From the UHGV virus genome UHGV-0466892: DNA of 41,858 nt. One strand, given 5' to 3'. The stretch comes from a virus. Numbering within the stretch: position 1 is the stretch's first letter; every line of letters begins with the position of its first letter. The notes under the pieces are model-generated. The model made no database searches and was not told the DNA's origin. It saw nothing but the letters and a program-made list of their open reading frames with translations. Shown here in pieces: positions 1 to 41,858 of this stretch. Both the position numbers and the translations under genes were made by a program.

Positions 1-361
1 GATAATCCAGCCACAAATTATATTGCGCCAGTTCCTCACCTTTCAGACGACCAATCGCCGCTTTACCAGGCCATTGCTTACTGTTTATGTATTCGTTGAC
101 CTGATTAATCAATTGCTGCTTTTCCAATTCGGCTGCGGCAATTTGTTCCTCATGAGTTGGCGGTGGAATATCAATCCATGCAGGCATTCTGTCGATGACA
201 CCTCTGTATTTTCCTTCTGGTGCTTCCTTCATAAATTCGGCGGCAACAGTGTCGTCAATTTCGATTCCATCATCTGGCCATTCGCCGGATTCCTGATAAG
301 CGATTTTAAGCTCCACAGGGAAAAACGCATTTTTATTGGCACTGAAAATATATTTCTGCAT
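1..361 (-). CDS. tail fiber assembly protein (Tfa), 5' part; the ORF runs off the window start and continues at 41858..41779
   Basis: Not in the ORF track because it has no stop inside the window. ATG at 361-359; translation MQKYIFSANKNAFFPVELKIAYQESGEWPDDGIEIDD...GRLKGEELAQYNLWLDY is typical of the lambda Tfa / Mu U family; lies 2 nt downstream of the fiber gene stop. Confidence 0.8.
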   Translation of the reverse strand, partial: MQKYIFSANKNAFFPVELKIAYQESGEWPDDGIEIDDTVAAEFMKEAPEGKYRGVIDRMPAWIDIPPPTHEEQIAAAELEKQQLINQVNEYINSKQWPGKAAIGRLKGEELAQYNLWLDY

Positions 362-363
362 TT

Positions 364-1170
364 CTACCGTCCTATCGAAATATAACTGAATCTGTATTGC
401 TGTGAGATATCACTGGTTGCCACACGCCACGCTGAATTACTGATATGTTCAAAATTTACAGACAAAACCTGCGGGGCAGGATTCGACGGGTCTGACTGAA
501 CGGCATCAGACATAACACTGACTGAAACCATCGGCTGATTAGGGAATGGTATAGGGAAGTGTCCACTGATAAAGCGGGTCGTGTTTCCTGAAAAAGTGCC
601 AAACTGAACAATATATCCACCTGGTAGCCTGAACCATCCCGAACCAGAAGCGAATGCTCCCATATCCGGTATCTGATTTTCCCCCGTCCCGACATTCCTT
701 TTCGATGCCGTTCCCAAACCAAGGTATGTGAGAATGTCAGCAATAGTATTTTTCCCAATAATGTCACGGCCAACAGAAGTTAAATCAGTCTGCGCTGCTG
801 TATCATTTCCAGTGAAATATGGGAGTTTATTTGCACCTGTTGCGAGCCCAGCTAATGCCGACAGCGTGGCATCAAGCGCCTGGAAATCTTTCCCGAAAGC
901 GGTCCCCATTTTGGATATAAACCCGTTCAGGTCTCCATCATCAAGCACATCCAGCCTGCTTTTGTTGGCGGTGTACTGCGCCAACGCTGCCGCGATAAAG
1001 CTGGCTTGCCGAATAGCTTTGTTGACCTGTGCGCTGGATGCTTTACCTGCCGTAAACCCTGAAAGCAGAGCCGGAAGTGCTTCCCAGTCAGCTTGTGAGG
1101 TGACGTTAGCGTTCGGATCAAGCGCGAAAGGTTTAAAGTTGTTTATTGCCATTAGAGTATTGTCCCCCAT
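364..1170 (-). CDS. tail fiber protein (gpH-like); constant N-terminal part about residues 1-153, variable C-terminal part after a GLG motif
   Basis: 268-aa ORF positioned after baseplate J and gpI-like genes and before Tfa; the internal gix-like site at 709-734 divides constant and variable parts. Confidence 0.75.
   Translation of the reverse strand: MGDNTLMAINNFKPFALDPNANVTSQADWEALPALLSGFTAGKASSAQVNKAIRQASFIAAALAQYTANKSRLDVLDDGDLNGFISKMGTAFGKDFQALDATLSALAGLATGANKLPYFTGNDTAAQTDLTSVGRDIIGKNTIADILTYLGLGTASKRNVGTGENQIPDMGAFASGSGWFRLPGGYIVQFGTFSGNTTRFISGHFPIPFPNQPMVSVSVMSDAVQSDPSNPAPQVLSVNFEHISNSAWRVATSDISQQYRFSYISIGR
709..734. other. gix/hix-like inversion crossover site inside the tail fiber gene
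   Basis: Plus strand cgttcccaaacc aa ggtatgtgagaa; falls exactly at the GLG codons (fiber residues 151-153) that also occur at the head of the start-less fiber cassette. Confidence 0.6.
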
Positions 1171-1832
1171 GCTCCAACATCGAACCCGCCGATGTATTCG
1201 TTATCCATATCAAACCCAAAGAATTTAGAGCCCTCGGATGGTGCTTCTACCGAAGGCGTTTCAACATCACCGGCCCATACGCCAGCTGCTTTAACGGTGA
1301 GATAGCCCTGTTTGATAGCGGCAATCAGTTCAAGAGACACATCAGAAATATCAGTCTCGGGGAATACCCAAACCGATATCGTCATGTCCTGGTTGTCGAC
1401 AATTTGCATCCTCAGGCCTGAGCCTTCAGTCGCAGCGTCAAGGATGGGAGGCAGAGAGTCGTTCCGACCGTCCCAGTTGTTGATAGCGATTTTCGCTTTC
1501 AGAATGATGCGGTACGTCTCATCGCTTAGCGTCGTATAGCCAGAATCAGGATCATATGGCCCTTGCCAGATGCCCTGGTCATACCCAAGCCCGTCAGTGT
1601 CCCAGCTGAAATAAACTCCGCTAATTGGCTGGCTGACTATGCGACTGCGTCCGATCCACAGACCGAGGATGTCGAGCTGTACACCGACAGCAGTATCAAT
1701 ATCGAAGGCTGTTATAAGCCCTGACATAGTGCTGGACACATCAATCAGCGGGCGGGTGCTCAGATCTATATGGTCAAAAAAGAGTGGCTTGGTAGCGTGG
1801 TAGTTAGTGATCAGTTCGGTGTATTTGCTCAT
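1152..1832 (-). CDS. baseplate/tail protein, P2 gpI-like
   Basis: 226-aa ORF between baseplate J-like gene and tail fiber, matching the P2 V-W-J-I-H-G gene order; family assignment by position and size only. Confidence 0.55.
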   Translation of the reverse strand: MSKYTELITNYHATKPLFFDHIDLSTRPLIDVSSTMSGLITAFDIDTAVGVQLDILGLWIGRSRIVSQPISGVYFSWDTDGLGYDQGIWQGPYDPDSGYTTLSDETYRIILKAKIAINNWDGRNDSLPPILDAATEGSGLRMQIVDNQDMTISVWVFPETDISDVSLELIAAIKQGYLTVKAAGVWAGDVETPSVEAPSEGSKFFGFDMDNEYIGGFDVGAWGTIL

Positions 1833-3028
1833 GAGGTCACCGTGATACTGATATTCGCGGTGCTACAGGACGCAGAAGCATCATAGGCAATATCAATGTT
1901 TGATGCCGATACGCTGCCAGACGACTTACCGATCAGCAGGTCGGTAATATCGTAATAGCGGGCATTCCCGCCGCTCACAACGCCGAGGTTTGCCGGGGAA
2001 TAAATACGGCTCAGCAGAACGTCGTCGCCAATTGTTAGGCCATTTATATAATCGGCAACAGCCTGTTTAATCTGCTCGCCGATTTGAGAGGTATAGCCGG
2101 TAAAAACTTTCAGGGTAATGGCTACGAAAATTGGCACATCGGTAGAGCGCGAAAAACTGATGACGTGTGGATTACCGTAAGTATCCGGCACCGTGACAGA
2201 AGTTTTACCGTAAGTTGCGGTTCCCTGCCCTTTACTCCCCCGGATTGTTTGGGCTATCTCGGTAACATCCCCTCCATCGACGATGGCGGAAATAGAGTGT
2301 GGCGGCAGCCCGTTGCTGTCGGTTGCCCCAGTGTCGTTCTCATATAGTTTGTGACGTGTCACGCCAGCAACATTAGCGATAGCACCGTCGACACCTTCAA
2401 ACGGTGTGATCGATGGTAGCGCGACGCTTTGCCCCTGCCGAATGCGCAGCTCTGCGTCGGTTTCGGCTGGTGAACCGACAGTAGCCGCAACTGGATTGGT
2501 TACCGACACCCAACCTCGGGTCGGGGTGTTGATAGTGGTAATAGTCCCGGCCAGCGCCGCAACCGAACCGCTATTCGCACATGTGGCCGTCACCAGCACA
2601 GTACCATCAACGCCGATCGCTACACTTGCGGGAAAATTCCAGATAATGCCGTTTTTATCCCGTGCGGAGCCATTCGTGATAGTCGTGCCTGCCGTACCGG
2701 TTAACAGAAGGTCAGCAGTAGAGTTTGTCGCTACTTTTCGCGTGATCCCGTTAATTTTCACATTGCTGCTAAGCGCTGCGGCCTGCGCTGTCGTCGGTGA
2801 AAAAGAGTTGTAGATCCCGATAGCGGTGTTGTTAGCGTCATGCACGGCAAGAGCCACCAGCGCGACCATCTGCCCGTCTTTGCTGTCTGGTTCGAGGTAG
2901 GCATCACTACCGTAAATCTGCCTGAAATAGCTGGTCAGTGTATCTAGGATTGTCTGGTAATCAGGCGCACTAATCCCCTGGGCGGTTACCGTTGCCGATA
3001 GCCCCAGCGTGTCGAGGTTCAAAGCCAT
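1829..3028 (-). CDS. baseplate J-like protein (P2 gpJ / Mu gp47 family)
   Basis: 399-aa ORF, overlapping stop/start with neighbours; position in baseplate module; sequence character of baseplate J proteins. Confidence 0.75.
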   Translation of the reverse strand: MALNLDTLGLSATVTAQGISAPDYQTILDTLTSYFRQIYGSDAYLEPDSKDGQMVALVALAVHDANNTAIGIYNSFSPTTAQAAALSSNVKINGITRKVATNSTADLLLTGTAGTTITNGSARDKNGIIWNFPASVAIGVDGTVLVTATCANSGSVAALAGTITTINTPTRGWVSVTNPVAATVGSPAETDAELRIRQGQSVALPSITPFEGVDGAIANVAGVTRHKLYENDTGATDSNGLPPHSISAIVDGGDVTEIAQTIRGSKGQGTATYGKTSVTVPDTYGNPHVISFSRSTDVPIFVAITLKVFTGYTSQIGEQIKQAVADYINGLTIGDDVLLSRIYSPANLGVVSGGNARYYDITDLLIGKSSGSVSASNIDIAYDASASCSTANISITVTS

Positions 3029-3382
3029 TTATGCCTCGCTTGTTACAGTCGTCTGGCCGTAGATTGTGTCAATGGAGGAAGTGAAGGTGACGCGACGGCT
3101 GGTGCCGTCATAATTGGTATCGAAGGAAAGAATCGACAGAACGCCCGGTGTATCCTGTATGCGTTCGCGTATAGCCAGGATGTAGACATCTGATCGCTGC
3201 TTCCCAAGCACTGACTGAACATACGGCGTGCCTTCCGTCAGATCGAGAAACCACTGACCGCGCCACAGCTCGAAACGGGTTTTTACGGCCTGGGCGACAC
3301 ATTCCGGACTGTCGATAAGGAAAGTATCGTCACCCTGGCCGAAAGTGTAATCGCCTTCAGTATCTTCGCGACGGTATCGCAT
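3029..3382 (-). CDS. baseplate wedge protein (gpW / gp25-like)
   Basis: 117-aa ORF between spike and baseplate J genes; size and position typical of gpW/gp25. Confidence 0.55.
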   Translation of the reverse strand: MRYRREDTEGDYTFGQGDDTFLIDSPECVAQAVKTRFELWRGQWFLDLTEGTPYVQSVLGKQRSDVYILAIRERIQDTPGVLSILSFDTNYDGTSRRVTFTSSIDTIYGQTTVTSEA

Positions 3383-4122
3383 TATTGCGGCCCTCCGGTA
3401 GTTCCCCCGCCAGTCTGTACTCCGCCATGTTTATGCGTGGCGACACTGATACCAGAAGCTGTTACGTCATTCGTTACCGTCACCGGCCCAAGCATCGTCG
3501 CAGTACCGCCGCTTTCGCCCATTCCCTGAGACAAGTTGCCATTAATCGTTACGTTGCCGTTCAGCGTGATAGTCGGGGATGTGATTGTCGTTCCACCTTC
3601 AGCCGTAGCTGTAAGCTGGCCCGGTGTTTTAATGGTGATGTTATGTCCTGCGGCGACTTCTACAAACGCCGCACCATCATCGGTTCGCAGCTGCGCGGCG
3701 CTGGTACTGATACCGCTGATTTTCCGTGCTTGCGACTGCGGGCCAACGATGGCGAACGCATCAGATAAGTCATGCTGGCGCGGGTCGACGGTCTCCTGAA
3801 CGCCGCCGCTCTGCCACCAAAAATCGATGCAACGGTCAGCAAAAATCAGGAGGCACTCGTCGCCTTCTTTTACCGGAAAGGTCAGCGTGCAACCGCCGCC
3901 GCGCGGGAAGATGACCGGCACATCCACCAGCGGTTTTAATTCGGTGGATCCATCGCCAACAATACCGCGTAGCGCCACCTCTACTGTGCAGGTAACAGTC
4001 TCAGGATCGAACGACTGAATGATGCCGGGCATCGCTACGCGCATCTGGGTCGACACCGAATCGGCAATGGCCTGCGCGGTCTGCTGCTCACCGCCGATCT
4101 GTGATTGAGTTGGAATTGGCAT
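3382..4122 (-). CDS. baseplate spike / puncturing protein (gpV / gp5-like)
   Basis: 246-aa ORF; Gly/Thr-rich beta-helix-like C-terminus (NITIKTPGQLTATAEGGTTITSPTITLNGNVTINGN) typical of tail spikes; ATG at 4122-4120 preceded by a G-rich Shine-Dalgarno. Confidence 0.7.
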   Translation of the reverse strand: MPIPTQSQIGGEQQTAQAIADSVSTQMRVAMPGIIQSFDPETVTCTVEVALRGIVGDGSTELKPLVDVPVIFPRGGGCTLTFPVKEGDECLLIFADRCIDFWWQSGGVQETVDPRQHDLSDAFAIVGPQSQARKISGISTSAAQLRTDDGAAFVEVAAGHNITIKTPGQLTATAEGGTTITSPTITLNGNVTINGNLSQGMGESGGTATMLGPVTVTNDVTASGISVATHKHGGVQTGGGTTGGPQ

Positions 4123-4137
4123 AAAACCCCCATAAAA

Positions 4138-4157
4138 AAACCAGCCGAAGCTGGTTT
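4138..4157 (-). terminator. rho-independent terminator hairpin (minus strand) directly upstream of the spike gene
   Basis: Stem aaaccagc / gctggttt with 4-nt loop; on the minus strand it is followed by a T-run (complement of 4134-4137). Confidence 0.5.
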
Positions 4158-4344
4158 GGTATCAATTATCTCTTAGTAACTAAGCTACATCAGTGTGAAG
4201 TAAGGCTTTTCCGCTGCAATGGCACACATTCACAAGGTGTATTAGGATATGTTTGCAACAAGTAAGCATTGAAAATCAATTTCAGCCATGAAGCCGCCAT
4301 AGAGTGGACCTGCACCATCGCATTATTGACTACAGGAGTAACAA

Positions 4345-4635
4345 ATGGGATTTAGATTTCGTAAAAGAATCCGGATTGCGCCCGGACTCGCGATCAACAT
4401 TAGTAAAAGCGGAGTAAGCACTTCAATTGGTGGTAAAGGTTCCACCATTAACATCGGGAAAAAAGGCGTAAAGATGACAAATGGCCTTCCCGGCACGGGG
4501 CTGTCGCATACCACTAACCTTTACTCTCCCGGGAAATCGACAGAAAAAAAACAACTTACTCATAAGCAAAAAATAATTAGAAACATCCTGTTCGTAATTA
4601 TTGTGTTTATTATAATTAAAGCTCAATATTTTTGA
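4345..4635 (+). CDS. DUF4236-like small protein with C-terminal transmembrane helix (cargo gene)
   Basis: ATG at 4345 with AGGAG 7 nt upstream; N-terminus MGFRFRKRIRIAPGLAINISKSGVSTSIGGKG matches the DUF4236 signature as recalled; hydrophobic C-terminus ILFVIIVFIII; opposite strand to the tail operon; followed by a terminator. Confidence 0.65.
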   Translation: MGFRFRKRIRIAPGLAINISKSGVSTSIGGKGSTINIGKKGVKMTNGLPGTGLSHTTNLYSPGKSTEKKQLTHKQKIIRNILFVIIVFIIIKAQYF

Positions 4636-4640
4636 CGCAT

Positions 4641-4670
4641 GCCCGCCTATCTGGCGGGCTATTTTACTTT
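4641..4670 (+). terminator. rho-independent terminator after the DUF4236 gene
   Basis: gcccgcc tatct ggcgggc stem-loop followed by tattttactttt. Confidence 0.65.
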
Positions 4671-5003
4671 TCGGCAGTCGTATGTTGCATACTGACGCGG
4701 CGAATCCATGCTGGCTTGCAACCACTGTGCGTTGAGAATGGCTTTGCCGTTTCGATTGATGTACTCAAGACCAACCCATCTTCCAGGCTGATCGGTAGCC
4801 ATACGCCAATCCATCTTGATATTGTTATAATCGCCTTTGTTTTTCAGGAAGGTGATTTTTTGCATTTCTGGCTTTGCGCCATTGATTCTGGCTAAGCCAT
4901 CATCTGCCCAATGGATTTTAAAATCACCACATTGCTGATCCGCAAAAGCGGGTGCTGATATAAGCACCGCGAACACGGTAACAGTGCAAAGTAAATGTCT
5001 CAC
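4659..5003 (-). CDS. small secreted protein with cleavable signal peptide (cargo gene)
   Basis: GTG start at 5003 with GAGGTGG Shine-Dalgarno; N-terminus MRHLLCTVTVFAVLISAPAFA|DQQ is a classic Sec signal; two Cys in the mature part; unrelated to tail proteins. Confidence 0.55.
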   Translation of the reverse strand: MRHLLCTVTVFAVLISAPAFADQQCGDFKIHWADDGLARINGAKPEMQKITFLKNKGDYNNIKMDWRMATDQPGRWVGLEYINRNGKAILNAQWLQASMDSPRQYATYDCRKVK

Positions 5004-5015
5004 GGCCCCACCTCA

Positions 5016-6080
5016 CTAATTCGTCGTCCCTTGCATTGCTTTCGGGCTATAAAGATCACGAGCGCCACGCGCAAAACACATCAAATCCATGTACCACGCC
5101 TGACCTCTGGTGTCGCCAGTATAGTCGATAGCTTTGACGATATAAACGCCATCCGTCGCAATGCTGGCAGCCTGTGACGTCGTGCCGGTCAGCACACGGT
5201 TGCCGTTCTCTTCTGTTTCGGTGATACGCCCGGGCGACTGTGCTATTTCGCTATTGCCGAGCGTGGCGCGGTACACCGAAGCCTGATCGAGCTGGATAAG
5301 ACCATTAATACGGATGTTTGGGTTTATCAGGCACCGCACGTTTACTCCGCCGCCCATCGTTTGTTGCGGCATACCGATCAGGCCAGTATTGGCATTCAAC
5401 ACAATGGCTTCGTGAATATATTTATCCTCCGGCACCATCTGGACCTGACCATCCACCAGTTGCCATGTCGCTTTGCACTGCGCAGCAATATTATCCATCA
5501 CGTTGCGGCTGGATGAGTAAATCGCGCGGCCACGAGGAAACACGGTATCAGGAAAATCGCCGGTAATGCCCTGTGTCACGCCGAACGCGTTGAAATCCTG
5601 CATCGTCGCCCGGTGCAGATCCGCAACGGTATAGCCAGCGGCAAGCGTGGTGATGGTAGTCGCGTAGAGGAACGCTTCGTGGTTACTGATGGCCTGAATC
5701 AGCACCCAGGAATCGGTGATGTTGTCCTTCCCGGTGACGGTGAAGCGAATATCACCGTCAAATATCAGGCCGTAGTTCTGACCGTTCACCTGCCCTACCT
5801 GGTCTGGTGAAATCTCCCGGGCGACACCAACCTGGCTCGCATCAACATCCGGCGCAATACCGTCATACCCGGCAATGATGCGAATTTTTGCAAACTCCTG
5901 CCCCAGTATCTTGTTCGTGGTATCGGTCGAAAGGTTGTAAATTTTCACGTTTGCCACGCGCGGCCAGCGTGTATCTGCCCACTCGATCTGGAACGTGACC
6001 TTAAAATCAGACAGGGAAATACCCTGCCCGTTCTGGTCCAACAGCTGCAACTCAAAATGGCGCATCCAGTTAAGAGACAT
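5016..6080 (-). CDS. baseplate hub / tail protein (gpD / gp27-like)
   Basis: 354-aa ORF between tape measure-proximal genes and the spike; assignment by position and size. Confidence 0.5.
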   Translation of the reverse strand: MSLNWMRHFELQLLDQNGQGISLSDFKVTFQIEWADTRWPRVANVKIYNLSTDTTNKILGQEFAKIRIIAGYDGIAPDVDASQVGVAREISPDQVGQVNGQNYGLIFDGDIRFTVTGKDNITDSWVLIQAISNHEAFLYATTITTLAAGYTVADLHRATMQDFNAFGVTQGITGDFPDTVFPRGRAIYSSSRNVMDNIAAQCKATWQLVDGQVQMVPEDKYIHEAIVLNANTGLIGMPQQTMGGGVNVRCLINPNIRINGLIQLDQASVYRATLGNSEIAQSPGRITETEENGNRVLTGTTSQAASIATDGVYIVKAIDYTGDTRGQAWYMDLMCFARGARDLYSPKAMQGTTN

Positions 6081-6082
6081 TT

Positions 6083-6388
6083 CTACTCCTGCACGAAAAT
6101 GAGGTGGCTGTATGTGCCGAGGTTGGTTTTGGTGGGCTCGTCTGGTGCGCCCTTATCGGTCGCCACCACCAGCGCACCATCAATGCCAAGCTGTGGAAAT
6201 TGTCGTAAAAGGTTCACGCCGGTCAGTAGAGGTACGCCAGAGAGAAGCGCGGCACCGCCGCTATCCATCACGTCCATAATCCAACCAGCCGCATCGCGCC
6301 AGATGATCCTGAGCGTATACGTAGTATTGCCCAGCAAAACGCGGAACTGCTGATTGTCAGGAGAAAGCGGTATTTCGTTAAACTGCAT
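6083..6388 (-). CDS. tail/baseplate assembly protein (hypothetical)
   Basis: 101-aa ORF tightly packed in the tail operon. Confidence 0.45.
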   Translation of the reverse strand: MQFNEIPLSPDNQQFRVLLGNTTYTLRIIWRDAAGWIMDVMDSGGAALLSGVPLLTGVNLLRQFPQLGIDGALVVATDKGAPDEPTKTNLGTYSHLIFVQE

Positions 6389-6389
6389 A

Positions 6390-6992
6390 TCATCCCCCGA
6401 ATGCTGATGTAACGCTTCCGCCCAGCTGGCTCAGCAAAGATTCGTTTGGCGGTGTAGTGGATTTCGTCCCGGAATTTTGCACCGCCGATGTGCTGACGCC
6501 ATCCTGCATATCTGATTTATCAGCAACGCTAACGCTCTGCGTTTGCGACATGATCACTTCACGCAGGGTAAGCGTGCAGTTCAGCACGTTCTCGCTGGTT
6601 TTGTCCGTTGTCACCTCGATGGCTCTCACCAGCATATTGCTGTACACCCGCTTCCCGGTCACCACATCGAACGGCACCCGGGAGGACTGGAGATCCAGCA
6701 GTTGCTGATAGGTCTCTTTCGGGCTCAGTCCGGCGCTGAGGCCGATTGAAGATGTATCAATGAAGTCCAGCAACGAACCGCCCCCAGCGAAGCCGCATTC
6801 CATTGTGACTTCGCTGGGGCGCTTATACGCATGATCGGCGATGAAACCCGAGGCGCTATTCGTTGTTGGCTTCTCCACCGGGTGCTCAGTAATTTCGAGC
6901 GCATCAGAATGCTTTTCGGAAACGACCACGCTGGGGATCAGCAGGCCAATTCGCCGTGATTGCTGGCGAAAAATCGCTGATAAAATATCCAT
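6390..6992 (-). CDS. tail protein downstream of tape measure (hypothetical)
   Basis: 200-aa ORF; its start overlaps the tape measure stop at 6992. Confidence 0.45.
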   Translation of the reverse strand: MDILSAIFRQQSRRIGLLIPSVVVSEKHSDALEITEHPVEKPTTNSASGFIADHAYKRPSEVTMECGFAGGGSLLDFIDTSSIGLSAGLSPKETYQQLLDLQSSRVPFDVVTGKRVYSNMLVRAIEVTTDKTSENVLNCTLTLREVIMSQTQSVSVADKSDMQDGVSTSAVQNSGTKSTTPPNESLLSQLGGSVTSAFGG

Positions 6993-9862: not shown

Positions 9863-9865
9863 GCG

Positions 9866-31810: not shown

Positions 31811-31875
31811 TAAACCACAGATTTATACTTCATGCAAACTTTGGATTTATTGCGTGCATAAACCAAATATTTACA
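31811..31875. promoter_or_regulatory. OR-like operator cluster with divergent promoters
   Basis: Three related 15-17-bp sites: TAAACCACAGATTTATA (31811-31827), AAACTTTGGATTTATT (31836-31851), TAAACCAAATATTTACA (31859-31875), about 24 bp apart, between the cro and cI starts. Confidence 0.6.
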
Positions 31876-31883
31876 ATGACCAT

Positions 31884-32273: not shown

Positions 32274-32337
32274 ACCAGTAGTATCTAATTCCATGTAATA
32301 AAAATATTTCAAGATTTAATATCTTCTGGAGGATTCG

Positions 32338-32619: not shown

Positions 32620-32622
32620 TAA

Positions 32623-33147: not shown

Positions 33148-33220
33148 TCAGATTTGGTCAATACGCCTGAGTTATAAGGCTCTCAGCTACTAACTCTGTC
33201 GCCTTCCCCGAACCTTCTCA

Positions 33221-33246
33221 TCCCGACCACGCGTCGGGATTTTTTT
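33221..33246 (+). terminator. rho-independent terminator ending the cI operon
   Basis: cccgac cacgc gtcggg followed by a run of eight T. Confidence 0.8.
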
Positions 33247-33285
33247 TGCCTGCGATTCTGCAGACGTGTCACAAAACCCAGCCAC

Positions 33286-33349
33286 ATAAACCTCAGATTT
33301 ACAATTAACACTAACCTTAAGTTGACATGTATATAAACCAGTGATTTAA
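33286..33349 (+). promoter_or_regulatory. pL-like promoter with OL operators
   Basis: TTGACA (33321-33326), 17-bp spacer, TTTAAT (33344-33349); operator-like sites TAAACCTCAGATTTA (33286-33300) and TAAACCAGTGATTTA (33333-33347) share the OR consensus. Confidence 0.6.
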
Positions 33350-33602
33350 TCTAACTCACCAAGACGCACCACGAACCACCCAGGCATGGAGCCCACGAAG
33401 TAGCCGTCCGGGGCATACGAAAACCGGAATGAGGTGGTGATATTAACGCGCAGTAGGTTTGAAACGTTCCGCCAGCCTGGCGACAAGGGCAAACACAGAA
33501 GTGAGCTTCGCGGTGGTGAATTGCAGAGTTAAAACGCTCAACTGTGAAGATCAGCGTCACGGCACCACCAGCGAAGTTCACTCAGCAATAGTGGAGAACA
33601 TC

Positions 33603-33809
33603 ATGGTTCATCAGCACTACGGTACACAGACAGTAAACCGCGGCGCAGTTCAGCCGGGGATGCTTGTAAAACACAAAGACTCAACCTGGACCGCATCTGC
33701 TAACGCACGCGGTCGCCTGTATCTTCACCGTGGCATCGAACGTACCTACACCAAAGATTTGCTGGTTGAGGTTTATCTAAACGGTTTAGGACATGGCCTT
33801 AGCCATTAA
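33603..33809 (+). CDS. small early protein (hypothetical)
   Basis: ATG 33603 with GGAGA Shine-Dalgarno; 68 aa; first ORF after the pL leader. Confidence 0.4.
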   Translation: MVHQHYGTQTVNRGAVQPGMLVKHKDSTWTASANARGRLYLHRGIERTYTKDLLVEVYLNGLGHGLSH

Positions 33810-33820
33810 CGGAGTGAGTT

Positions 33821-33982
33821 ATGCAGGAGAAAAAATGCGCGTACTGCCGCAAGCCGATCAAGCAAGGGAAGGAAGTTAAAAACGAACTGCTCTTTATCCA
33901 CGGCACGCAGTTGAAACGCGAGCAACGTGATTACTGTTCAGTACGTTGCGCTTCGTTCGACCAGATGGCCCACGAAGCATAA
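33821..33982 (+). CDS. small zinc-ribbon protein (53 aa)
   Basis: Not in the ORF track (under 60 aa). ATG 33821 with GGAGTGAG Shine-Dalgarno; MQEKKCAYCRKPIKQGK...DYCSVRCASF contains CxxC ... CxxxC. Confidence 0.4.
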   Translation: MQEKKCAYCRKPIKQGKEVKNELLFIHGTQLKREQRDYCSVRCASFDQMAHEA

Positions 33983-34120
33983 CGAAAACCCCGCGCAAGG
34001 CGGGATTCACGTCCGGTGCCACCGACCAAAGTTACACCGGAATTTATACCAAACCAAAAAACATCCAATGGGCGCTATCTCTGGCCCGGGGATTCTAACA
34101 CTCAAAAAAGAGGATCTCAC

Positions 34121-36955
34121 ATGGAATTTTTCCATCTGATAAAAGCCAGTCAGAAGTCTGGCAAGAAAGATGCAGTGATTTGGTTCACTGCGAAAAGTGT
34201 AGCGCGCGCCAATCTCCAACTCGATGTGGCACTGGAAGAAGCCGGAATTGAAGAAACTGGCCGCGGTAAAGATTATGCCAAACCAATCCGCACCGATTTC
34301 CCGGTATATGACGACCTGCCGGAAGAAGGCGCAGTGGATTACACCTGGTGCAAACGCTACGAACTGCAGAACGATGACCGCACCTGGCTGCCAAAAGTCA
34401 CAGCTGAAAACTCTGACGAGAAAACGGCTCAGACCGTTGATAGTCACATAACTACTGAGTCAACGCTGCCAGAAACCGCTGGCATCACGCTGGACGAACA
34501 CGACGACGACTCAACCCTCTACCCGGTAGTGCAGATGCCGTTTCGTAAGCAACTGCTTTCCCAGTTCACCGCCGACGAACTGCGCCACCACGTAACCCGC
34601 GAAGAGTACGAAGCTATCGGCGCGCTGGAGATGGACACTGATAACAGTTACGTCCAGAACTTGCTGTTAGCTGCTGAGAACTGCCCGGAAGTGAAGGGTT
34701 ACGACACCAAAGACCTGTGGCGCTACACCGATGCCATTCGCAAAGTGTTCAGCCAGGACAAGCGTCACGAACTCGCGCTGGTACTCCGTTTCACCAGAAT
34801 GTGGGCGGCGACTGATTACATTGACCGTGGCATCCTGGCGCGTGAATGGGCTGCCGGTAATCACATCAGTAGTGTTCAGCGCACTGACGCAGGTACCAAT
34901 GCCGATGGTGGATATGTCACCGACCGCGGCGAAGGTGCGCATCACACGCTGGACACACTGGATCTGGAGATCGCCTGTGCCCTGCTGCCGATGGATTTCA
35001 ACCACCTTGAGATCCCGGGCAGCATTCACCGTCGCGCCAAAGAAATCGTGGCGAAAAAAGAAGAGCCCTGGAAATCATGGAGCGCCCTTCTGCGTAACCA
35101 GCCTGGCGTTCTGTCGGTAAACCGTGCGGCCATTTTCAACCTGGTACGGATCGCACCGGAAAACATTCATCGTACGCCGGCGGCCCATCTGGAGTTCGTT
35201 AACCAGACCATGACCGCTGAGTTTAACGCCGCAACTGAACTGATGCCCCTGCGCGCGTCCGCGGTTCAGACGCAAGTAGAGGTTGAGGAACCAACAGCTC
35301 AGCCGCAGGTCGCGAACCTCGGCGGTGGCATGTTCTCCATCAATGGCCTGTTGAGTGGAAATACTAACCCGGTCATCAATATTCCCTCAAATGAAGCAGA
35401 AAAACCGGAAACCGTAGTGGAGACCACCAGCGATGTGCAGATGGAAGCGACTCAGCCAGAGAAAGACAAAACTGTTGATACGGTACCACCAGGCGAAAGC
35501 GCTGATGCAACTGATCCGCAAACAGATACCCTGAACCCGGCTGAGGTGCTCTCCGCCGCGGCGCCGGAGCTGGCGAACGCCACTACGCAGGAATTGACCA
35601 CCGAAGCATCAGAGGAGAAAGCGAGCGCGCCGGAAGAGCAACCTTCACAACCGGTCCCGGAATACCCGGCGTACTTCGAACCGGGCCGCTATGAAGGCGT
35701 GCCGAATGACGTTTATCACGCGGCGAACGGGATCAGTTCCACCCAGGTGAAGGATGCCAGGGTCAGCCTGATGTACTTCAACGCGCGCCACGTCGCCAAA
35801 ACTATCCCGCGGGCCCCTTCCAAGGTGCTGGACATGGGTAATCTGGTTCACGCCCTGGCGCTGCAGCCTGAAAACCTTGAGGCAGAGTTCAGCGTGGAGC
35901 CGGAGATCCCGGAAGATGCTTTTACTACCACCGCCACCCTGCGCGAGTTCATCGATTCGCACAACGCCACCCTGCCGGCACTGCTGAGCACTGACGATAT
36001 CAAAGCGCTGCTTGAAGAGCACAACGCCACCCTGCCCGCGCAGCTGCCGCTGGGCGCCAGCCTGGAGGAAACGGCCCAGAGCTATATGGCTTTGCCGGCA
36101 GAGTACCAGCGCATCGAGCCAGACCAGAAGCAGACCGCAGCAGCTATGAAAGCCTGCATCAAAGAGTACAACGCCACCCTGCCCGCGCCGGTTAAAACCA
36201 GCGGCAGCCGCGATGCGCTGCTTGAACAGCTGGCAATCATCAACCCTGACCTGGTGGAGCAGGAAGCCCAGAAGCCGGCACCGCTTAAGGTGTCCGGCAG
36301 CAAAGCGGAAATGATCCAAGCGATTAAGTCGGTTAAACCCGATGCCGTATTCGCCGACGAGCTGCTGGACGCCTGGCGAGAAAATCCGGGCGACAAGATT
36401 CTGGTGACGCGCCAGCAGCTGGTGACCGCCCAGGCCATCCAGTCGGCCCTGCTGGCACACCCGACCGCAGGCATGCTGCTAACCCACCCGAGCCGCGCCG
36501 TTGAGGTGAGCTACTTTGGCTTTGACGAGGAGACGGGACTGGAAGTTCGTGTGCGCCCTGACCTTGAGATCGACCTAGACGGCGTGCGTATCGGTGCTGA
36601 CCTGAAAACCATCAGCATGTGGAATGTTAAGCAGGAAAGCCTGCGCGCCAGGCTACACCGGGAAATTATTGAACGTGATTATCACCTGAGCGCGGCTATG
36701 TACTGCGAAACCGCAGCGCTGGATCAGTTCTTCTGGATTTTCGTCAACAAAGACGAGAACTACCACTGGATCGCCATCATCGAGGCATCCGCTGAACTAC
36801 TGGAGCTGGGTATGCTCGAGTACCGCAAAGCGATGCGCAATATCGCAACCGGATTCGACACAGGTGAATGGCCAGCGCCAATCACTGCTGACTACACCGA
36901 CGAACTGAACGACTTCGACCTGCGCCGCCTTGAAGCGCTGCGTACTCAGGCATAA
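34121..36955 (+). CDS. RecE-like 5'-3' exonuclease (exodeoxyribonuclease VIII-like, C-terminal PD-(D/E)xK domain)
   Basis: Start set at ATG 34121 (AGAGGA Shine-Dalgarno); ~944 aa; acidic low-complexity middle with repeats; C-terminal VRPDLEIDLDGVRIGADLKT fits PD-(D/E)xK; immediately followed by an annealing-protein gene. Confidence 0.55.
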   Translation: MEFFHLIKASQKSGKKDAVIWFTAKSVARANLQLDVALEEAGIEETGRGKDYAKPIRTDFPVYDDLPEEGAVDYTWCKRYELQNDDRTWLPKVTAENSDEKTAQTVDSHITTESTLPETAGITLDEHDDDSTLYPVVQMPFRKQLLSQFTADELRHHVTREEYEAIGALEMDTDNSYVQNLLLAAENCPEVKGYDTKDLWRYTDAIRKVFSQDKRHELALVLRFTRMWAATDYIDRGILAREWAAGNHISSVQRTDAGTNADGGYVTDRGEGAHHTLDTLDLEIACALLPMDFNHLEIPGSIHRRAKEIVAKKEEPWKSWSALLRNQPGVLSVNRAAIFNLVRIAPENIHRTPAAHLEFVNQTMTAEFNAATELMPLRASAVQTQVEVEEPTAQPQVANLGGGMFSINGLLSGNTNPVINIPSNEAEKPETVVETTSDVQMEATQPEKDKTVDTVPPGESADATDPQTDTLNPAEVLSAAAPELANATTQELTTEASEEKASAPEEQPSQPVPEYPAYFEPGRYEGVPNDVYHAANGISSTQVKDARVSLMYFNARHVAKTIPRAPSKVLDMGNLVHALALQPENLEAEFSVEPEIPEDAFTTTATLREFIDSHNATLPALLSTDDIKALLEEHNATLPAQLPLGASLEETAQSYMALPAEYQRIEPDQKQTAAAMKACIKEYNATLPAPVKTSGSRDALLEQLAIINPDLVEQEAQKPAPLKVSGSKAEMIQAIKSVKPDAVFADELLDAWRENPGDKILVTRQQLVTAQAIQSALLAHPTAGMLLTHPSRAVEVSYFGFDEETGLEVRVRPDLEIDLDGVRIGADLKTISMWNVKQESLRARLHREIIERDYHLSAAMYCETAALDQFFWIFVNKDENYHWIAIIEASAELLELGMLEYRKAMRNIATGFDTGEWPAPITADYTDELNDFDLRRLEALRTQA

Positions 36956-36960
36956 GGGGA

Positions 36961-38079
36961 ATGATGATGGAAAACACGAATATCGTAACCGCTGAACAGC
37001 AGACTCCAAACACGATCTCAGCCAGCAATGCCATTTTCAACGTGCAGGCTTTAACCCAGCTTCAGTCTGTCGCCGGGTTGATGGCACAGGCAGCCGTAAC
37101 GGTGCCTGAGCACCTCCGCGGCAATCCGGCAGACTGCATGGCCATCATCATGCAGGCGATGCAGTGGGGTATGAACCCTTACGCCGTGGCGCAAAAGACG
37201 CACCTGGTTAACGGTGTCCTGGGATACGAAGCGCAACTGGTTAATGCGGTGATCTCCAGCTCAAACGCCATCGTTGGCCGCTTTCACTATGAGTACGAGG
37301 GCGACTGGTCGAAATGTGCCAGCAGCCGCGAGATAACCGTTAAAAAGCCTGCGAAAGGTGGCGGGACGTACGACAAGAAAGAAATGGTACGCGGTTGGGA
37401 AAGTGCTGATGAACAAGGACTGTCGGTACGGGTAGGTGCCGTTATTCGCGGTGAAAGTGATATCACCTGGGGAGAGCCTGTTTTCCTCTCCAGCGTAATC
37501 ACACGTAATTCTCCACTTTGGGTATCAAACCCGAAACAGCAGATCGCTTATCTGGCACTCAAATACTGGGCGCGCCTGTATTGCCCTGCAGTTGTTCTTG
37601 GTGTGTACACCCCTGATGAGATTGAACAGCGCACAGAAAAAGAGATCAACCCAACGCCGCAACGCGTTAGCCTGGCTGATATCTCAGGTGACACCGTCAC
37701 AACCACGCAAAGCGCACAGGAATCGTCGGTAAATGTCGGCTCTCTTGCCGATGATTTCCGCGAACGCATCGAATCTGCTCAGGACGTGGATAGCGCCAAA
37801 TCGCTGCGTGCCGACATTGAAACGGCGAAAGCTACGCTGGGATCCGCACTATTCACCGAGCTGAAAAACAAAGCCGTAAAGCGTTATTACCTAGTGGATG
37901 CACGCAACAAGGTTGAGGAGGCTATTAAATCCCTGCCCCAGCCCGACGAGCCGCATGCAGCCGAACGGTTCGCTGAAGCCGAGCGCATGCTTGCATCTTC
38001 AAAGCGTCACTTAGGCGATGAACTGCACGATCAATTCAGCATCACCCTGGCGGATATGAAACCGGAATACGTGGCCTGA
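36961..38079 (+). CDS. single-strand annealing recombinase, RecT/Red-beta superfamily
   Basis: 372 aa; segment ADCMAIIMQAMQWGMNPYAV ... GVLGYEAQL resembles the conserved core of Red-beta/RecT proteins. Confidence 0.7.
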   Translation: MMMENTNIVTAEQQTPNTISASNAIFNVQALTQLQSVAGLMAQAAVTVPEHLRGNPADCMAIIMQAMQWGMNPYAVAQKTHLVNGVLGYEAQLVNAVISSSNAIVGRFHYEYEGDWSKCASSREITVKKPAKGGGTYDKKEMVRGWESADEQGLSVRVGAVIRGESDITWGEPVFLSSVITRNSPLWVSNPKQQIAYLALKYWARLYCPAVVLGVYTPDEIEQRTEKEINPTPQRVSLADISGDTVTTTQSAQESSVNVGSLADDFRERIESAQDVDSAKSLRADIETAKATLGSALFTELKNKAVKRYYLVDARNKVEEAIKSLPQPDEPHAAERFAEAERMLASSKRHLGDELHDQFSITLADMKPEYVA

Positions 38080-38117
38080 CGAGACCGGGAGGGGTAACCC
38101 TCCCTCAAGGAGATTAT

Positions 38118-38360
38118 ATGCGACTGATCAATCGAGGAAGTAAGCAATCACCTTTAGCTCGCCAAGCATGCGACATCGCGCTGGCAGCTCACTTGCAAAC
38201 ATATGGCGACTATGGGCGAAGCAAGATGAAAGAGACTTATACGGTGAAGGTTGAAGGCGTGAAAGTCTGGGTGGAGGTGGTGAACCGAAAGGCGAGCTAC
38301 GTGGCCACAGCGATGACCGGCATGCGCCGTCTCCGCTCCCTGCCCGGGCAGGTTGGTTGA
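38118..38360 (+). CDS. small hypothetical protein
   Basis: 80 aa; ATG with AGGAG Shine-Dalgarno, preceded by a GC hairpin gggaggg-gtaa-ccctccc. Confidence 0.4.
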   Translation: MRLINRGSKQSPLARQACDIALAAHLQTYGDYGRSKMKETYTVKVEGVKVWVEVVNRKASYVATAMTGMRRLRSLPGQVG

Positions 38361-38401
38361 AAAAGATTTTGAATGGCCCGAACGGGCAACTGGAGAGAGC
38401 T

Positions 38402-38599
38402 ATGGATGATATTTTGGTAACGTCAGACCTGACCAGTCGCTACAAAATTTCACGCAAAACCCTTTGGTCATGGCAAAGTGCAGACACAATGCCTCGGGGC
38501 TTCGTATGCCCGTTCCCACCCCCTGACTGGCCCGGCAACCCTAACCGCTGGCGCTCTGAGTCAATCAAAGAGTGGGAGGATAAAAAGAAGATAAATTAA
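38402..38599 (+). CDS. xis: excisionase / AlpA-family DNA-binding protein
   Basis: Start set at ATG 38402 ([25 protein letters not shown]...FPPPDW...WRSESIKEW) matching the AlpA/Xis HTH pattern; 3' end abuts the integrase 3' end. Confidence 0.6.
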
Positions 38600-39789
38600 C
38601 TGAAGGGCTCTCCGATGATCTCTTCAAGATGGCTCTGCCAAACGCGGAGCCAGTGTTTCTGATCATCGATATAGTCATGAAGGTTGTAATGCGCCATAAC
38701 CCCCACCATCTGATGCCCGAGCAGCTTTTCAATTACGTGCGGCGGGCAACCTAACTCAGAGAGATTTGTGGCTATCGTCCGCCTCATATCATGAAGCGAC
38801 CACTCTGCCATACCTGTTCCATTCCAAATAGAACGGGCGTAATTGGATGCCACAGGTGAATGAACGGGCGAATCTTTGATCCCGCCATCAATTTTACGTT
38901 GTGAAGTCACCAGGTGATTGGTGTTTATTTTCTTGAGGTGATTTCTGACCAAGTTAACGGCGGCGTCTGAGAGCCCCCTTCTAATATGTACCCGAGTTTT
39001 ATAACTGCCCGCAGGCACGACCCACTCATTATCATCCAATCGAAACCATGATCTCTCACTAAGTCGAATCTCAGCCGTACGGCATCCGGTAAGCATAATA
39101 AATTTCACCAGGAAAACGGACTCTATCGACATATGGCTTTTCAACCACTGATAGATTTTGCGCAGATCGTCATCGTCCATCCTGCGAGTTCTCTTTTTAG
39201 GCTTTTGCCCGACATCAGATGGCAGTAATCCCTCGAGTGGGTTTGAGGCGATCACACTTCTGTTAACGCAGAACCTAAACGCCCGTTTGCACAGCGAAAG
39301 CATGTAATGAGCCATCACCCTGCTTTCTATAGAATCGAAGACGTTGATCCAGTGCATTTTCGCTGTGTTATCGACTTTGACATTCTTCATCGGTTCGGCG
39401 ATATGTTTCTCAAACACCTGGCGATAGTAATCGACTTTAACTAGCCCGTTAGCGATACAGTGCCTTTCAATCCAGTAATTGAACGCTTCGGCAACGGACA
39501 TCGCTTCCTGTCGGGTCTGCTTATCCAGCTTCACCTGCTCTCGCGGATCCAGTCCCTCAGTTAACCAGTTTCTGAATTGTTGGCGACGCTCTCTTGCCTG
39601 GGTGATACTCATTGCAGGATAATCACCAACATTGAGTTTTACCGCTTTACCGGCCCAGCGATACCGATAGAAAAATGATATTTTTCCGGCCTGGCTGATT
39701 CTGGCGTTGAGCCCGTGCGAATCAGAAATAATCTCGATATCATCTCTTTTCTTGCCGAGCGCCTTCCTGAGCTTTGTGTCGGTGATCAT
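38596..39789 (-). CDS. int: tyrosine site-specific integrase (P4-like family)
   Basis: Start set at the Met of [14 protein letters not shown]...[10 protein letters not shown] (typical N-terminus); C-terminal HDMRRT ... LGH ... AHY region carries the catalytic R/H/Y motifs; the track start at 39846 is a GTG through upstream repeats. Confidence 0.85.
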
Positions 39790-39794
39790 TGAAT

Positions 39795-39835
39795 GGGTAC
39801 ACATTTTTGTTTTTGGGTACACAAAAGTGTACACA
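39795..39835. repeat. three direct repeats G(G/T)GTACACA upstream of int (candidate regulator or arm-type sites)
   Basis: gggtacaca at 39795-39803 and 39815-39823, gtgtacaca at 39827-39835. Confidence 0.45.
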
Positions 39836-40060
39836 AAGTTGCCCACTCAAAGCTACACGCAATGTAACACTAGTTCGCAGAGTGTTATGGTTTACATCCT
39901 TGAAAGCCTGCTGGATAAGGGTTTAGCGTAACAGAACGTTTTTACGCGGAATTGTTCGTAATATGCCAAATGACAATTTAAGAAAGTGTTCTAATTTATT
40001 AGAAATTTGCACTTAAATCAAAAAGTTACGGACAATTCAACCACCAGTCAATAAATTAAA

Positions 40061-40092
40061 GGGCACATTAAAGTACACAATATTTGTGCCCT
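40061..40092 (-). terminator. terminator-like hairpin downstream of the invertase gene
   Basis: gggcaca ... tgtgccc 7-bp stem with an 18-nt loop, flanked by A/T-rich sequence on both sides. Confidence 0.4.
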
Positions 40093-40112
40093 TCTCTGTT
40101 TCTTTCCCGTTA

Positions 40113-40661
40113 TCAGCTAGCTGGAAACTTTTTATACAGAGTTGAGAGCCCTACTCCATACGTTTTTGATACGCTTTGTCGTGATTCACCGGTTGCCATC
40201 CGCTCCCCCATTTCCCGCCATTGCTCATCCGTGAACTTAGGCCTGCGACCACCAACTCGCCCTTTTGCCCTGGCTACGGCCAGCCCTGCTAAGGTACGTT
40301 CGCTATTAAGATCAGATTCATATTGTGCTGCGGAAAGGATGTTACGAAAGTTATAGCGGCCGCTGGCTGTTTTGAGATCCACGCCATCGGTAATACTGCG
40401 GAAGTTGATACCCTTTTCCTGTAACTGCTGGAACATCAACAGCGCATGCAGAACGTTGCGGCCTATCCTGTCCAGCTTCCAGACCACCAGTTCATCCCCC
40501 GGCTGCATAGTGGCGATCAGCCGTTTTAGAACCGGCCGATTCGATTTCCTCCCGCTGGCATGCTCTTCAAAAATTTTCTCACAACCCGCTGACTTGAGCG
40601 CCGTTAGTTGCAATTCAGTGTCCTGGTGGTTTGTTGATACTCGGGCATAACCGTAAATCAT
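40113..40661 (-). CDS. serine recombinase, DNA invertase of the Hin/Gin/Cin/Pin family
   Basis: Start set at MIYGYARVSTNHQDTELQ (catalytic Ser-containing N-terminus); C-terminal HTH; GGAGA Shine-Dalgarno; lies adjacent to an invertible fiber segment. Confidence 0.9.
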   Translation of the reverse strand: MIYGYARVSTNHQDTELQLTALKSAGCEKIFEEHASGRKSNRPVLKRLIATMQPGDELVVWKLDRIGRNVLHALLMFQQLQEKGINFRSITDGVDLKTASGRYNFRNILSAAQYESDLNSERTLAGLAVARAKGRVGGRRPKFTDEQWREMGERMATGESRQSVSKTYGVGLSTLYKKFPAS

Positions 40662-40665
40662 GGGA

Positions 40666-40692
40666 TTTCTCCTGTTATGAAAACAGGAGAAA
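40666..40692. repeat. perfect 11-bp inverted repeat tttctcctgtt / aacaggagaaa spanning the invertase ribosome-binding site
   Basis: Arms at 40666-40676 and 40682-40692 with a 5-nt spacer; the left arm supplies the invertase Shine-Dalgarno on the minus strand. Confidence 0.5.
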
Positions 40693-40713
40693 CGGCGAAG
40701 CATCACCAGATTT

Positions 40714-41205
40714 TTGATGGTTATAAAAAAGGTTGGTTTGGGAGAAGGCTCAGCGTTACCCGTTGGTGTACCTGTTCCGTGGCCTTCAGCCACTCCTCCA
40801 ACAGGCTGGCTGAAATGCAATGGTGCGCCTTTTTCTGCCGCACAATATCCGAAGTTGGCACTGGCTTATCCTAGTCTGGCATTGCCGAATTTACGCGGTG
40901 AGTTCATCCGTGGCTGGGATGACGGGCGCGGTATTGACGCGGGGCGCGAAATTCTGTCTGCTCAGGGTGACGCCATTCGAAATATCGTTGGACACATCTC
41001 ATGCGTGCGTCGTGGGAGTGGATTTTCAGACCTTAAAGATGGCGCGTTTAGATACGATAGCAACTGGTCTACAAAAATTAAAGGGGATGGGGTCGAAGAC
41101 GACTGGGGGAGCGTAGTCTCATTTGATGCCAGTCGCGTAGTTCCAACTGCACCAGAAAACCGTCCACGCAGTATCGCATTTAACTTCATCGTGAGGGCCG
41201 CATAA
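40714..41205 (+). CDS. alternative tail fiber C-terminal (receptor-binding) cassette, start-less; expressed only after inversion
   Basis: Frame open from 40681 with no proper ATG or Shine-Dalgarno; KKVGLGEGSALPVGVPVPWPSATPPTGWLKCNGAPFSAAQYP...LRGEFIRGWDDGRGID is a typical variable fiber C-terminus. Confidence 0.7.
   Translation: MMVIKKVGLGEGSALPVGVPVPWPSATPPTGWLKCNGAPFSAAQYPKLALAYPSLALPNLRGEFIRGWDDGRGIDAGREILSAQGDAIRNIVGHISCVRRGSGFSDLKDGAFRYDSNWSTKIKGDGVEDDWGSVVSFDASRVVPTAPENRPRSIAFNFIVRAA
40721..40746. other. gix/hix-like inversion crossover site (partner of 709-734)
   Basis: TTATAAAAAAGG TT GGTTTGGGAGAA; the right half and TT core match the reverse complement of the site inside the fiber gene (TTCTCACATACC TT GGTTTGGGAACG). 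Confidence 0.6.
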
Positions 41206-41807
41206 TGACACAGGCAAAATTAAACAGTGAATTTATTGCCACAGTAGCGGGTGATATTACCGTCTATAACTATGACAACACGACACGGGAATACATTTCA
41301 TCATCAACAGAATATCTTGCCGTTGGCGTCGGTATCCCGGCATGTTCTTGTTTAGATGCGCCAGTTACACATAAAGCTGGTTATGCAATCTGCCGTTCTG
41401 CAGATTTTAACTCATGGGAATATGTGCCAGACCATCGCGGTGAAATCATCTATAGCACCGAAACAGGAGAATCGAAAGAAATCACAGCTCTGGGTGATTA
41501 CCCTGAAAATACAACCACTATCGCCCCGTTAACGCCATATGATAAATGGGATGGTGAGAAATGGGTGACGGATACTGAGGCACAGCATAGCGCCGCAGTA
41601 GAAGCGGCAGAAGCACAGCGCCAGTCACTGATTGATGCAGCAATGGCTTCCATTAGTCTGATTCAGCTGAAATTACAGGCCGGACGTAAACTTACGCAGG
41701 CAGAAACAACCAGGCTTAACGCTGTGCTGGATTACATTGACGCGGTGACGGCAACAGATACCAGCACCGCGCCGGATGTCATCTGGCCTGAACTGCCGGA
41801 GGTGTAG
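41205..41807 (+). CDS. tail fiber assembly protein (alternative Tfa)
   Basis: 200 aa; C-terminus ...TDTSTAPDVIWPELPEV is a typical Tfa ending; ATGA-coupled to the fiber cassette. Confidence 0.85.
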   Translation: MTQAKLNSEFIATVAGDITVYNYDNTTREYISSSTEYLAVGVGIPACSCLDAPVTHKAGYAICRSADFNSWEYVPDHRGEIIYSTETGESKEITALGDYPENTTTIAPLTPYDKWDGEKWVTDTEAQHSAAVEAAEAQRQSLIDAAMASISLIQLKLQAGRKLTQAETTRLNAVLDYIDAVTATDTSTAPDVIWPELPEV

Positions 41808-41858
41808 GCCATTCAATATCTGGCGCACCGGAAGTATCGACCAGTTCCAGTGTGTCCA
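41779..41858 (-). CDS. 3' end of the Tfa gene that begins at 361 (continuation across the window junction)
   Basis: Reading the minus strand from position 1 into 41858 keeps the frame: ...NLWLDY-LDTLELVDTSGAPDIEWPTPPAVQAR-stop at 41781-41779, a typical Tfa C-terminus. Confidence 0.6.
   Translation of the reverse strand, partial: DTLELVDTSGAPDIEWPTPPAVQAR

Follow-up and report, generated by a model that had tools for sequence, protein, structure and literature searches.

Continuity across the ends of a 41,858-bp phage record and its probable reading as the opened circle of a temperate myovirus

Textbook knowledge already covers phi80-type integration, circular assemblies obtained for temperate phages, and invertible tail fibre segments in which chaperone genes come in pairs. 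Among the described systems closest to the locus considered here are the G segment of Mu, the C segment of P1, the integration region of phi80 and the P segment of e14, which is 1,797 bp long and has the inverted repeat TTGGTTTGGGAGAAGG (PMC12529663). The sequence analysed here (the window) is the whole 41,858-nucleotide record of virus genome UHGV-0466892. A first-pass annotation, made from the letters alone, had noticed that a tail fibre assembly (Tfa) gene is split across the two ends, and had proposed a complete circular or circularly permuted phage genome, or a phage-plasmid. The observation is confirmed and the reading is supported in its main part: with high confidence, the window is the complete genome of an ordinary integrative temperate myovirus of E. 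coli type, its circle cut open at an arbitrary position. The phage-plasmid part is not supported.

The 5' part of the Tfa gene occupies 1..361 on the minus strand (translation and Pfam Caudo_TAP), where a frame beginning with ATG at 361-359 continues for 120 codons and the first base of codon 121, free of stops, to position 1, as had been reported. The 3' part, at 41779..41858 on the same strand (translation, Pfam and orthologues), supplies the remainder of codon 121 to codon 146 and the TGA at 41781-41779. When position 1 is joined to 41858, codon 121 is completed from base 1 and bases 41858-41857 (CTG, Leu), and the predicted 26 further codons (LDTLELVDTSGAPDIEWPTPPAVQAR) give a total of 146 aa; such an in-frame continuation is far above chance. 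The joined product scores 116.8 bits against Pfam PF02413 (Caudo_TAP; gathering cut-off 22.1), with model positions 2-130/131 aligned to residues 9-141 and the join at residue 120/121, the match reaching the C-terminal end of the domain. It is identical at 141/146 positions (97%, 0 gaps) to URC08680.1, an annotated 146-aa Tfa, at 146/146 in assemblies L145 and L146, and at 143-145/146 in six other contigs, while a search of solved structures at E <= 0.01 found no match. In length and collinearity it agrees with uninterrupted orthologues that lie directly downstream of a fibre gene. The joined frame is a bona fide Tfa of the lambda Tfa/Mu U/P2 G family.

The same continuity is found in sequences from other sources. 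A 30-mer spanning the junction occurs exactly inside 11 independent IMG/VR contigs (it was not found in a one-genome-per-species collection), and in many phages a single ungapped BLAST piece crosses 41858/1. In L145 (GCA_013066335.1) and L146 (SRR9971424), a gap-free alignment of 7,835 nt at 99.987% identity follows the window from 39973 through 41858/1 to 5949. Two further sequences place window base 41858 next to base 1: the E. coli GPEC60-12-649 prophage, at 39831/39830, and Citrobacter phage Omnitron, a circular record, at 39998/39997. A chance in-frame join is rejected because identical unbroken sequence exists in many independent assemblies. With base 41858 adjoining base 1 the gene is intact; the cut point lies 80 nt before the Tfa stop, and therefore Tfa looks split over both ends.

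The window ends have no terminal direct repeat (8 nt or longer) and no inverted repeat able to cause an assembly break. The missing terminal repeat is consistent with a trimmed circle, but it is not a positive assembler signature. The lack of both repeats also argues against the reading that the genome is linear with true physical ends (cos or fixed) inside Tfa, the gene being interrupted in virion DNA, for which the sole support is that the record starts there. The junction position is featureless in relatives, and the packaging genes speak against such ends as well. The large terminase gene (TerL; 18549..20177, minus strand) corresponds to an annotated TerL in the prophage and gave no match in a Pfam search; its nuclease domain is related to Sf6 gp2 (4IDH, E = 2.2e-27), the match covering the nuclease half alone. 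Sf6 is a headful packager, and this partial similarity may point to headful packaging for the present phage too. Directly upstream of TerL, a probable small terminase gene (Pfam DUF2280; 20174..20647, minus strand) lies about 20 kb from the junction, whereas packaging sites are usually near terS. Physical ends within Tfa are accordingly given only the slightest probability.

The int/attP module is complete. An intact attP core of phi80 type, ACAATTTAAGAAAGTGT, is found at 39973..39989 (phi80 annotation, exact match and prophage junctions), with attB identity reaching beyond it to about 39995. It adjoins a phi80-type tyrosine integrase gene at 38596..39846 on the minus strand (Pfam Arm-DNA-bind_3 and Phage_integrase), which is 98-99.8% identical at the DNA level to the int of phi80/mEpX1, although its start codon is placed with some uncertainty. 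In hundreds of E. coli chromosomes the match covers 36859..39995 and breaks off at 39995, the int-side att break, and the pin-side break of integrated relatives falls at 39973 (L145/L146), where host yciI sequence precedes it. The prophage is bordered by kch on one side and yciI on the other, and each of its ends carries the att core; an integrase beside the attP core and a core duplicated at the prophage ends place the window among the phi80-att integrative lambdoid prophages. The window is a precise circular permutation of the 41.1-kb GPEC60-12-649 prophage, collinear with it from attL to attR and with every module present, and it is likewise an exact circular permutation of the Omnitron record.

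A chromosomal fragment with host flanks, which had already been argued against, is rejected because all bases are collinear with phage DNA and attP is intact. With phage DNA on either side of the intact attP, the window represents the circle after excision, or else circularly permuted virion DNA as assembled, and not an integrated prophage. An intact attP and perfect closure would be equally expected from a head-to-tail dimer: in a tandem array, be it a tandem double lysogen or a replication or packaging concatemer, attP is regenerated between copies and any unit-length window closes on itself, with a sequence like that of a monomer circle. Such a slice would have to measure exactly one unit and meet at the join without a base missing or repeated; a circular record does this as a matter of course, a slice by coincidence. 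Moreover, all integrated relatives observed are single copies with attL and attR. The tandem slice is thus regarded as highly improbable. Since the phage, plasmid, E. coli complete-genome and IMG/VR collections yielded no copy of the whole window, the circularity of the present molecule is deduced from its relatives, and the source record is presumably circular.

The first-pass annotation had left room for a phage-plasmid, in which the circle would be a stable, autonomously replicating prophage, where an excised or packaged form would be transient. In favour of this are the absence of host flanks from the window and the related Omnitron (41,923 bp), which a bacterial genome project deposited as a circular molecule in its own right. 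Against it, partition, plasmid Rep or telomerase genes, which would mark plasmid-type replication and partition, were found neither in the annotation of the near-identical prophage nor in the early region where the window diverges from it. The latter carries Phage_rep_O, a lambda-type O replication function, the phi80-type int/attP module is complete, and copies 99.99% identical over the compared portion are integrated at yciI. The best coverage of the first 25 kb by any plasmid record is <= 34%. A plasmid lifestyle is very doubtful on these grounds; the intact attP, the circular permutation and the lack of host flanks and plasmid genes therefore indicate an excised or packaged integrative temperate myovirus. 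It is unlikely, too, that spontaneous excision or a carrier state lets the phage, in the manner of Omnitron, persist or accumulate in its host as a free circular episome, with its phi80-type integration module still working; if it did, the phage would combine integration with a facultative prophage state outside the chromosome.

The cut point lies in the middle of an invertible tail fibre segment of 1,848 bp (40733..722) that spans the record ends, and the inversion sites flank the junction, as had been stated. Next to the segment is pin (40113..40661, minus strand), predicted to encode a serine DNA invertase of 182 aa with Pfam Resolvase and HTH_7 domains; it matches Mu Gin (3UJ3) over its full length at E = 1.4e-56, residues 1-181 on 1-181, YARVS motif included. 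The pin-proximal site is TTATAAAAAAGG-TT-GGTTTGGGAGAA (40721..40746), and positions 40733-40748 are identical to the published 16-nt repeat of the e14 P segment (PMC12529663). The other site, CGTTCCCAAACC-AA-GGTATGTGAGAA, lies within the tail fibre gene at 709..734, inverted relative to the first; common to both are TCCCAAACCAA and the central dinucleotide, and TCCCAAACC-AA is likewise common to both. Positions 709-734 form a conserved boundary, directly downstream of which about 45 different 15-nt sequences occur in IMG/VR loci. A literature search on gix/cix/hix site tables and on Omnitron yielded nothing useful.

The expressed tail fibre gene (364..1170, minus strand; Pfam and translation) encodes 268 aa, with a constant N-terminal part at 1170..723 and a variable Gp53-like_C part at 722..364; the exact protein is not on record. 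A silent alternative C-terminal cassette with a Collar domain (Pfam, 54.6 bits) lies on the plus strand at 40735..41205 without its own start codon; L147, L148 and L149 have it fused to fibres of full length. Both cassettes are in the same frame at the sites (GGT TTG GGA). A second Tfa gene, Tfa' (41205..41807, plus strand; 200 aa; Caudo_TAP 113.8 bits), is convergent with the first and overlaps it by 29 nt at its 3' end; in 8/8 places among the matches listed, a convergent 146-aa Tfa comes next after the identical Tfa' protein.

Both orientations of the segment exist in nature, among relatives and not inside the present molecule. For L148/L151, the 1,848-bp segment is 99.9% identical and lies in opposite orientation relative to pin; L147 and L144 differ by a flip, both in P2-like backbones; and L079, a relative at 98% identity, also has the segment flipped. 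In the proposed mechanism, Pin would flip the segment between the two 26-bp inverted sites. Within the segment, two fibre-tip cassettes that lack promoters lie tail to tail, both accompanied by a Tfa chaperone gene of their own, and a flip would exchange the receptor-binding tip that is read in frame with the fibre's constant N-terminal part. Pin is probably active in the present phage, and the segment appears to be of the e14 P/Mu G/P1 C (Hin/Gin/Cin/Pin) type.

Annotation should handle the window as a circle, with Tfa as one 146-aa product over the origin, neither two fragments nor a pseudogene, and the invertible fibre segment should likewise be read over the record ends. The finding is a fact of record topology on a well-known kind of element, correct but ordinary, and it leaves phage biology unchanged.

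Three parts make up the genome: an early region of lambdoid kind, an int-attP-pin module of phi80 type, and structural genes like those of SEN34/Omnitron. Its structural module is 96-98.8% identical to those of Omnitron (CP115737.1) and the GPEC60-12-649 prophage and about 89% identical to that of Salmonella phage SEN34, all with genomes of about 41-42 kb; Omnitron, recorded as circular, and the prophage also share the convergent Tfa pair. The related genomes differ in part of the early/immunity region, of which 27698-33369 is nearly without match in the prophage, and in window 110-660, one half of the invertible segment, which is replaced. A unique 40-mer from the early region matches in 7 IMG/VR contigs. 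With phi80, the window shares the 17-bp attP core, the kch/yciI integration locus and an int-attP-pinL region that is 95.6% identical over 39801-40747. However, phi80 keeps only pinL and a Collar-domain pseudogene fragment, whereas the invertible segment here is intact, and the phi80 virion is a siphovirus, whereas this segment would serve a contractile-tail baseplate fibre.

As in the P segment/PinE system of e14 in E. coli K-12, a serine invertase adjoins a segment, about 1.8 kb in length, in which alternative C-termini of the tail fibre are encoded. The two differ in that e14 is a defective cryptic prophage and the window an apparently complete myovirus, and the second site of the window has just 11/16 repeat bases in common with the e14 repeat. 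With Mu G/Gin and P1 C/Cin, the locus shares a constant fibre N-terminus outside the segment, an adjoining invertase gene, and two variable C-termini with their own Tfa (Mu U/U') placed tail to tail inside. In contrast to these, its cassettes are Gp53-like_C and Collar tips, its segment measures 1.85 kb against 3 and 4.2 kb, and its backbone is neither a transposable phage nor a plasmid prophage.

The minus-strand tail fibre assembly (Tfa) gene starts at an ATG (361-359) and is stop-free for 120 codons and one base down to position 1, with codon 121 divided between base 1 and bases 41858-41857. Past the join the same frame continues for 26 further codons (LDTLELVDTSGAPDIEWPTPPAVQAR) to a TGA at 41781-41779, giving 146 aa in total. 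Translation from 361 thus bore out both the open frame and the continuation described in the first-pass annotation, whose arithmetic was correct. A second Tfa gene (Tfa', 41205-41807, plus strand, 200 aa) converges on the first, and their 3' ends overlap antisense by 29 nt (41779-41807). This overlap is also annotated in Escherichia phage vB_EcoM-606R2, in the GPEC60-12-649 prophage (an integrated E. coli relative) and in 8/8 contigs shown for Tfa'.

The joined protein matches Pfam Caudo_TAP with 116.8 bits (cut-off 22.1), residues 9-141 aligning to profile positions 2-130 of 131; the match therefore passes unbroken through the join at residue 120/121. The tail fibre assembly protein annotated in vB_EcoM-606R2, likewise 146 aa long, is identical to it at 141/146 positions with no gaps, so that the proposed alignment with Tfa proteins over the junction was obtained. 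When a junction-spanning query was searched by BLAST, single pieces crossed the join in many phage records, where they are annotated as 'tail fiber assembly protein (x2)', and the exact 30-mer over the join occurs within 11 independent IMG/VR contigs. An identical 200-aa Tfa' was located in 24 contigs; at each of the eight loci shown, a convergent Caudo_TAP gene of 146 aa comes next and overlaps it by the same 29 nt. Two of these eight loci, from NCBI assembly GCA_013066335.1 and Logan accession SRR9971424, align gap-free over 7,835 nt at 99.987% identity from window 39973 through 41858/1 to 5949, and their Tfa is identical to the joined one (146/146). Chance as the origin of the in-frame join is excluded.

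The region at 38596-40747 corresponds to the int-attP-pin region of phi80 and its relatives (95.6-99.8% identity), and the 17-bp phi80 attP core ACAATTTAAGAAAGTGT is matched exactly at 39973-39989. Hundreds of E. coli chromosomes match 36859..39995 at 99.8-100% and end there, while the match of the two 7,835-nt loci begins from the opposite side at 39973, preceded by yciI, tonB and yciA-C. The GPEC60-12-649 prophage sits between kch and yciI with the att core at both ends, and is 98.5-99.6% identical to the window across the shared ~85%. The window is an exact circular permutation of this prophage, window 39995 meeting attL and 39976 meeting attR, and bases 41858 and 1 are neighbours in it (39831/39830), as they are in Citrobacter phage Omnitron (39998/39997; a 41,923-bp record flagged circular). 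It follows that attP is intact, both its arms being phage, and comparison with integrated relatives revealed no host DNA within the window, in agreement with the proposed lack of chromosomal flanks. Mosaic replacements relative to the prophage were observed at 110-660, comprising the Tfa N-terminus and Gp53-like tip, and at 27698-33369, a stretch of about 5.7 kb in the immunity/replication region, where HNH endonuclease, dATP/dGTP pyrophosphohydrolase, DUF977, Phage_rep_O and YdaS/YdaT genes stand in place of HicAB.

These results support the proposal of a complete circular or circularly permuted phage genome: the genome in its excised or packaged state, recorded as a circle whose opening point is arbitrary. 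From attL to attR the prophage measures about 41.1 kb, and the window is one full genome unit; a piece cut out of a tandem lysogen or a concatemer would have to be of exactly unit length by coincidence, and is very improbable. Genuine physical ends within the Tfa gene are the least credible reading of all, being without support: terminal repeats are absent from the window ends and the terminase looks headful-type. Sf6 packages DNA by a headful mechanism, and the nuclease half of TerL resembles Sf6 gp2 (4IDH, E = 2.2e-27), which makes circularly permuted virion DNA a reasonable but unproven expectation.

Judged from the annotated GPEC60-12-649 prophage and Pfam scans, the window appears to carry a full set of phage modules, including genes for lysis, for TerS (DUF2280), TerL, the portal (Phage_portal_3) and the head, for the sheath and tube (DUF3383, DUF3277), the tape measure and the baseplate (Baseplate_J, DUF2612/Wedge1), and for the fibre and both Tfa proteins. 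The set further comprises pin, attP and int, RecET, an immunity region with repressor, YdaS and YdaT, an antiterminator and an O protein of the lambda type. Within the baseplate cluster the opposite strand carries a 96-aa ORF (4345-4635, plus strand), the counterpart of a DUF4236 gene annotated in relatives and a probable moron. Genes for partition or plasmid replication were absent from the same sources, and coverage of the first 25 kb by any plasmid record stays at or below 34%. The phage-plasmid option of the first-pass annotation is therefore unsupported, and a stable episomal lifestyle, which also conflicts with near-identical integrated copies, is highly unlikely. The split gene is confirmed and, with this exception, its interpretation supported; it is a matter of record topology in a temperate phage of a well-understood type. 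In practice, annotations of Tfa and of the invertible segment should run over the origin.

The cut lies within a predicted invertible tail fibre segment. The inversion sites expected around the junction are present as 26-bp sequences at 40721-40746 (TTATAAAAAAGG-TT-GGTTTGGGAGAA) and, inverted, at 709-734 (CGTTCCCAAACC-AA-GGTATGTGAGAA), sharing TCCCAAACC and a central dinucleotide; between the dinucleotides lie 1,848 bp (40733..41858 plus 1..722). The segment adjoins pin (40113-40661), which encodes a 182-aa serine invertase with a full-length match to Mu Gin (3UJ3, E = 1.4e-56). Inside the fibre gene that is expressed (1170..364, 268 aa), the 709-734 site marks the boundary between the constant N-terminal portion and a Gp53-like_C tip; a start-less Collar-domain tip (40735-41205) follows the other site in the same frame, GGT TTG GGA, as the expressed fibre. 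A separate Tfa gene comes after each tip.

The segment also occurs at 99.0-99.9% identity in loci L144 and L147-L151, which represent P2-like, further myovirus and lambdoid (siphovirus) backbones, with homology starting and stopping within a few bases of both sites. These unrelated backbones and sharp limits suggest that the whole segment is exchanged horizontally as a module whose borders are its own recombination sites. Relative to pin it is flipped in two of these loci (L148/L151), and that of L147 has the opposite orientation to that of L144; wherever it is flipped, the Collar tip is fused to a full-length fibre. The flipped arrangement is also found in a 98% identical structural relative (L079). 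In IMG/VR, 15/120 matches to the fibre-side site have a locus ending 3-5 nt past it (including L017, L052, L053, L056, L080 and L088; in L056 it makes up the whole contig), which looks like assembly breaks from mixed orientations in the sequenced populations. Among viral contigs (L017-L134), about 45 different 15-nt sequences directly follow the 21-nt constant-side site CTCACATACCTTGGTTTGGGA, the commonest encoding EGSAL (Collar-type tips), then EAAKR, ETINK, EARYV and DASGY, which shows that the tips joined at this single conserved site are extremely diverse.

Window 40733-40748 is identical to the published e14 P-segment inverted repeat, TTGGTTTGGGAGAAGG (PMC12529663), and on sequence grounds the segment is assigned to the host-range switching mechanism of Mu G, P1 C and e14 P. 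From pin through the site to the Collar start (39801-40747), the window is 95.6% identical to phi80 (L002 2501-3447), where the counterparts are named pinL, an 'IR3' hairpin and an 'internal fragment, tail collar domain pseudogene'; in the window a hairpin lies at 40666-40692, directly upstream of the pin start. The phi80 arrangement looks like what decay would leave of the invertible segment that is intact here.
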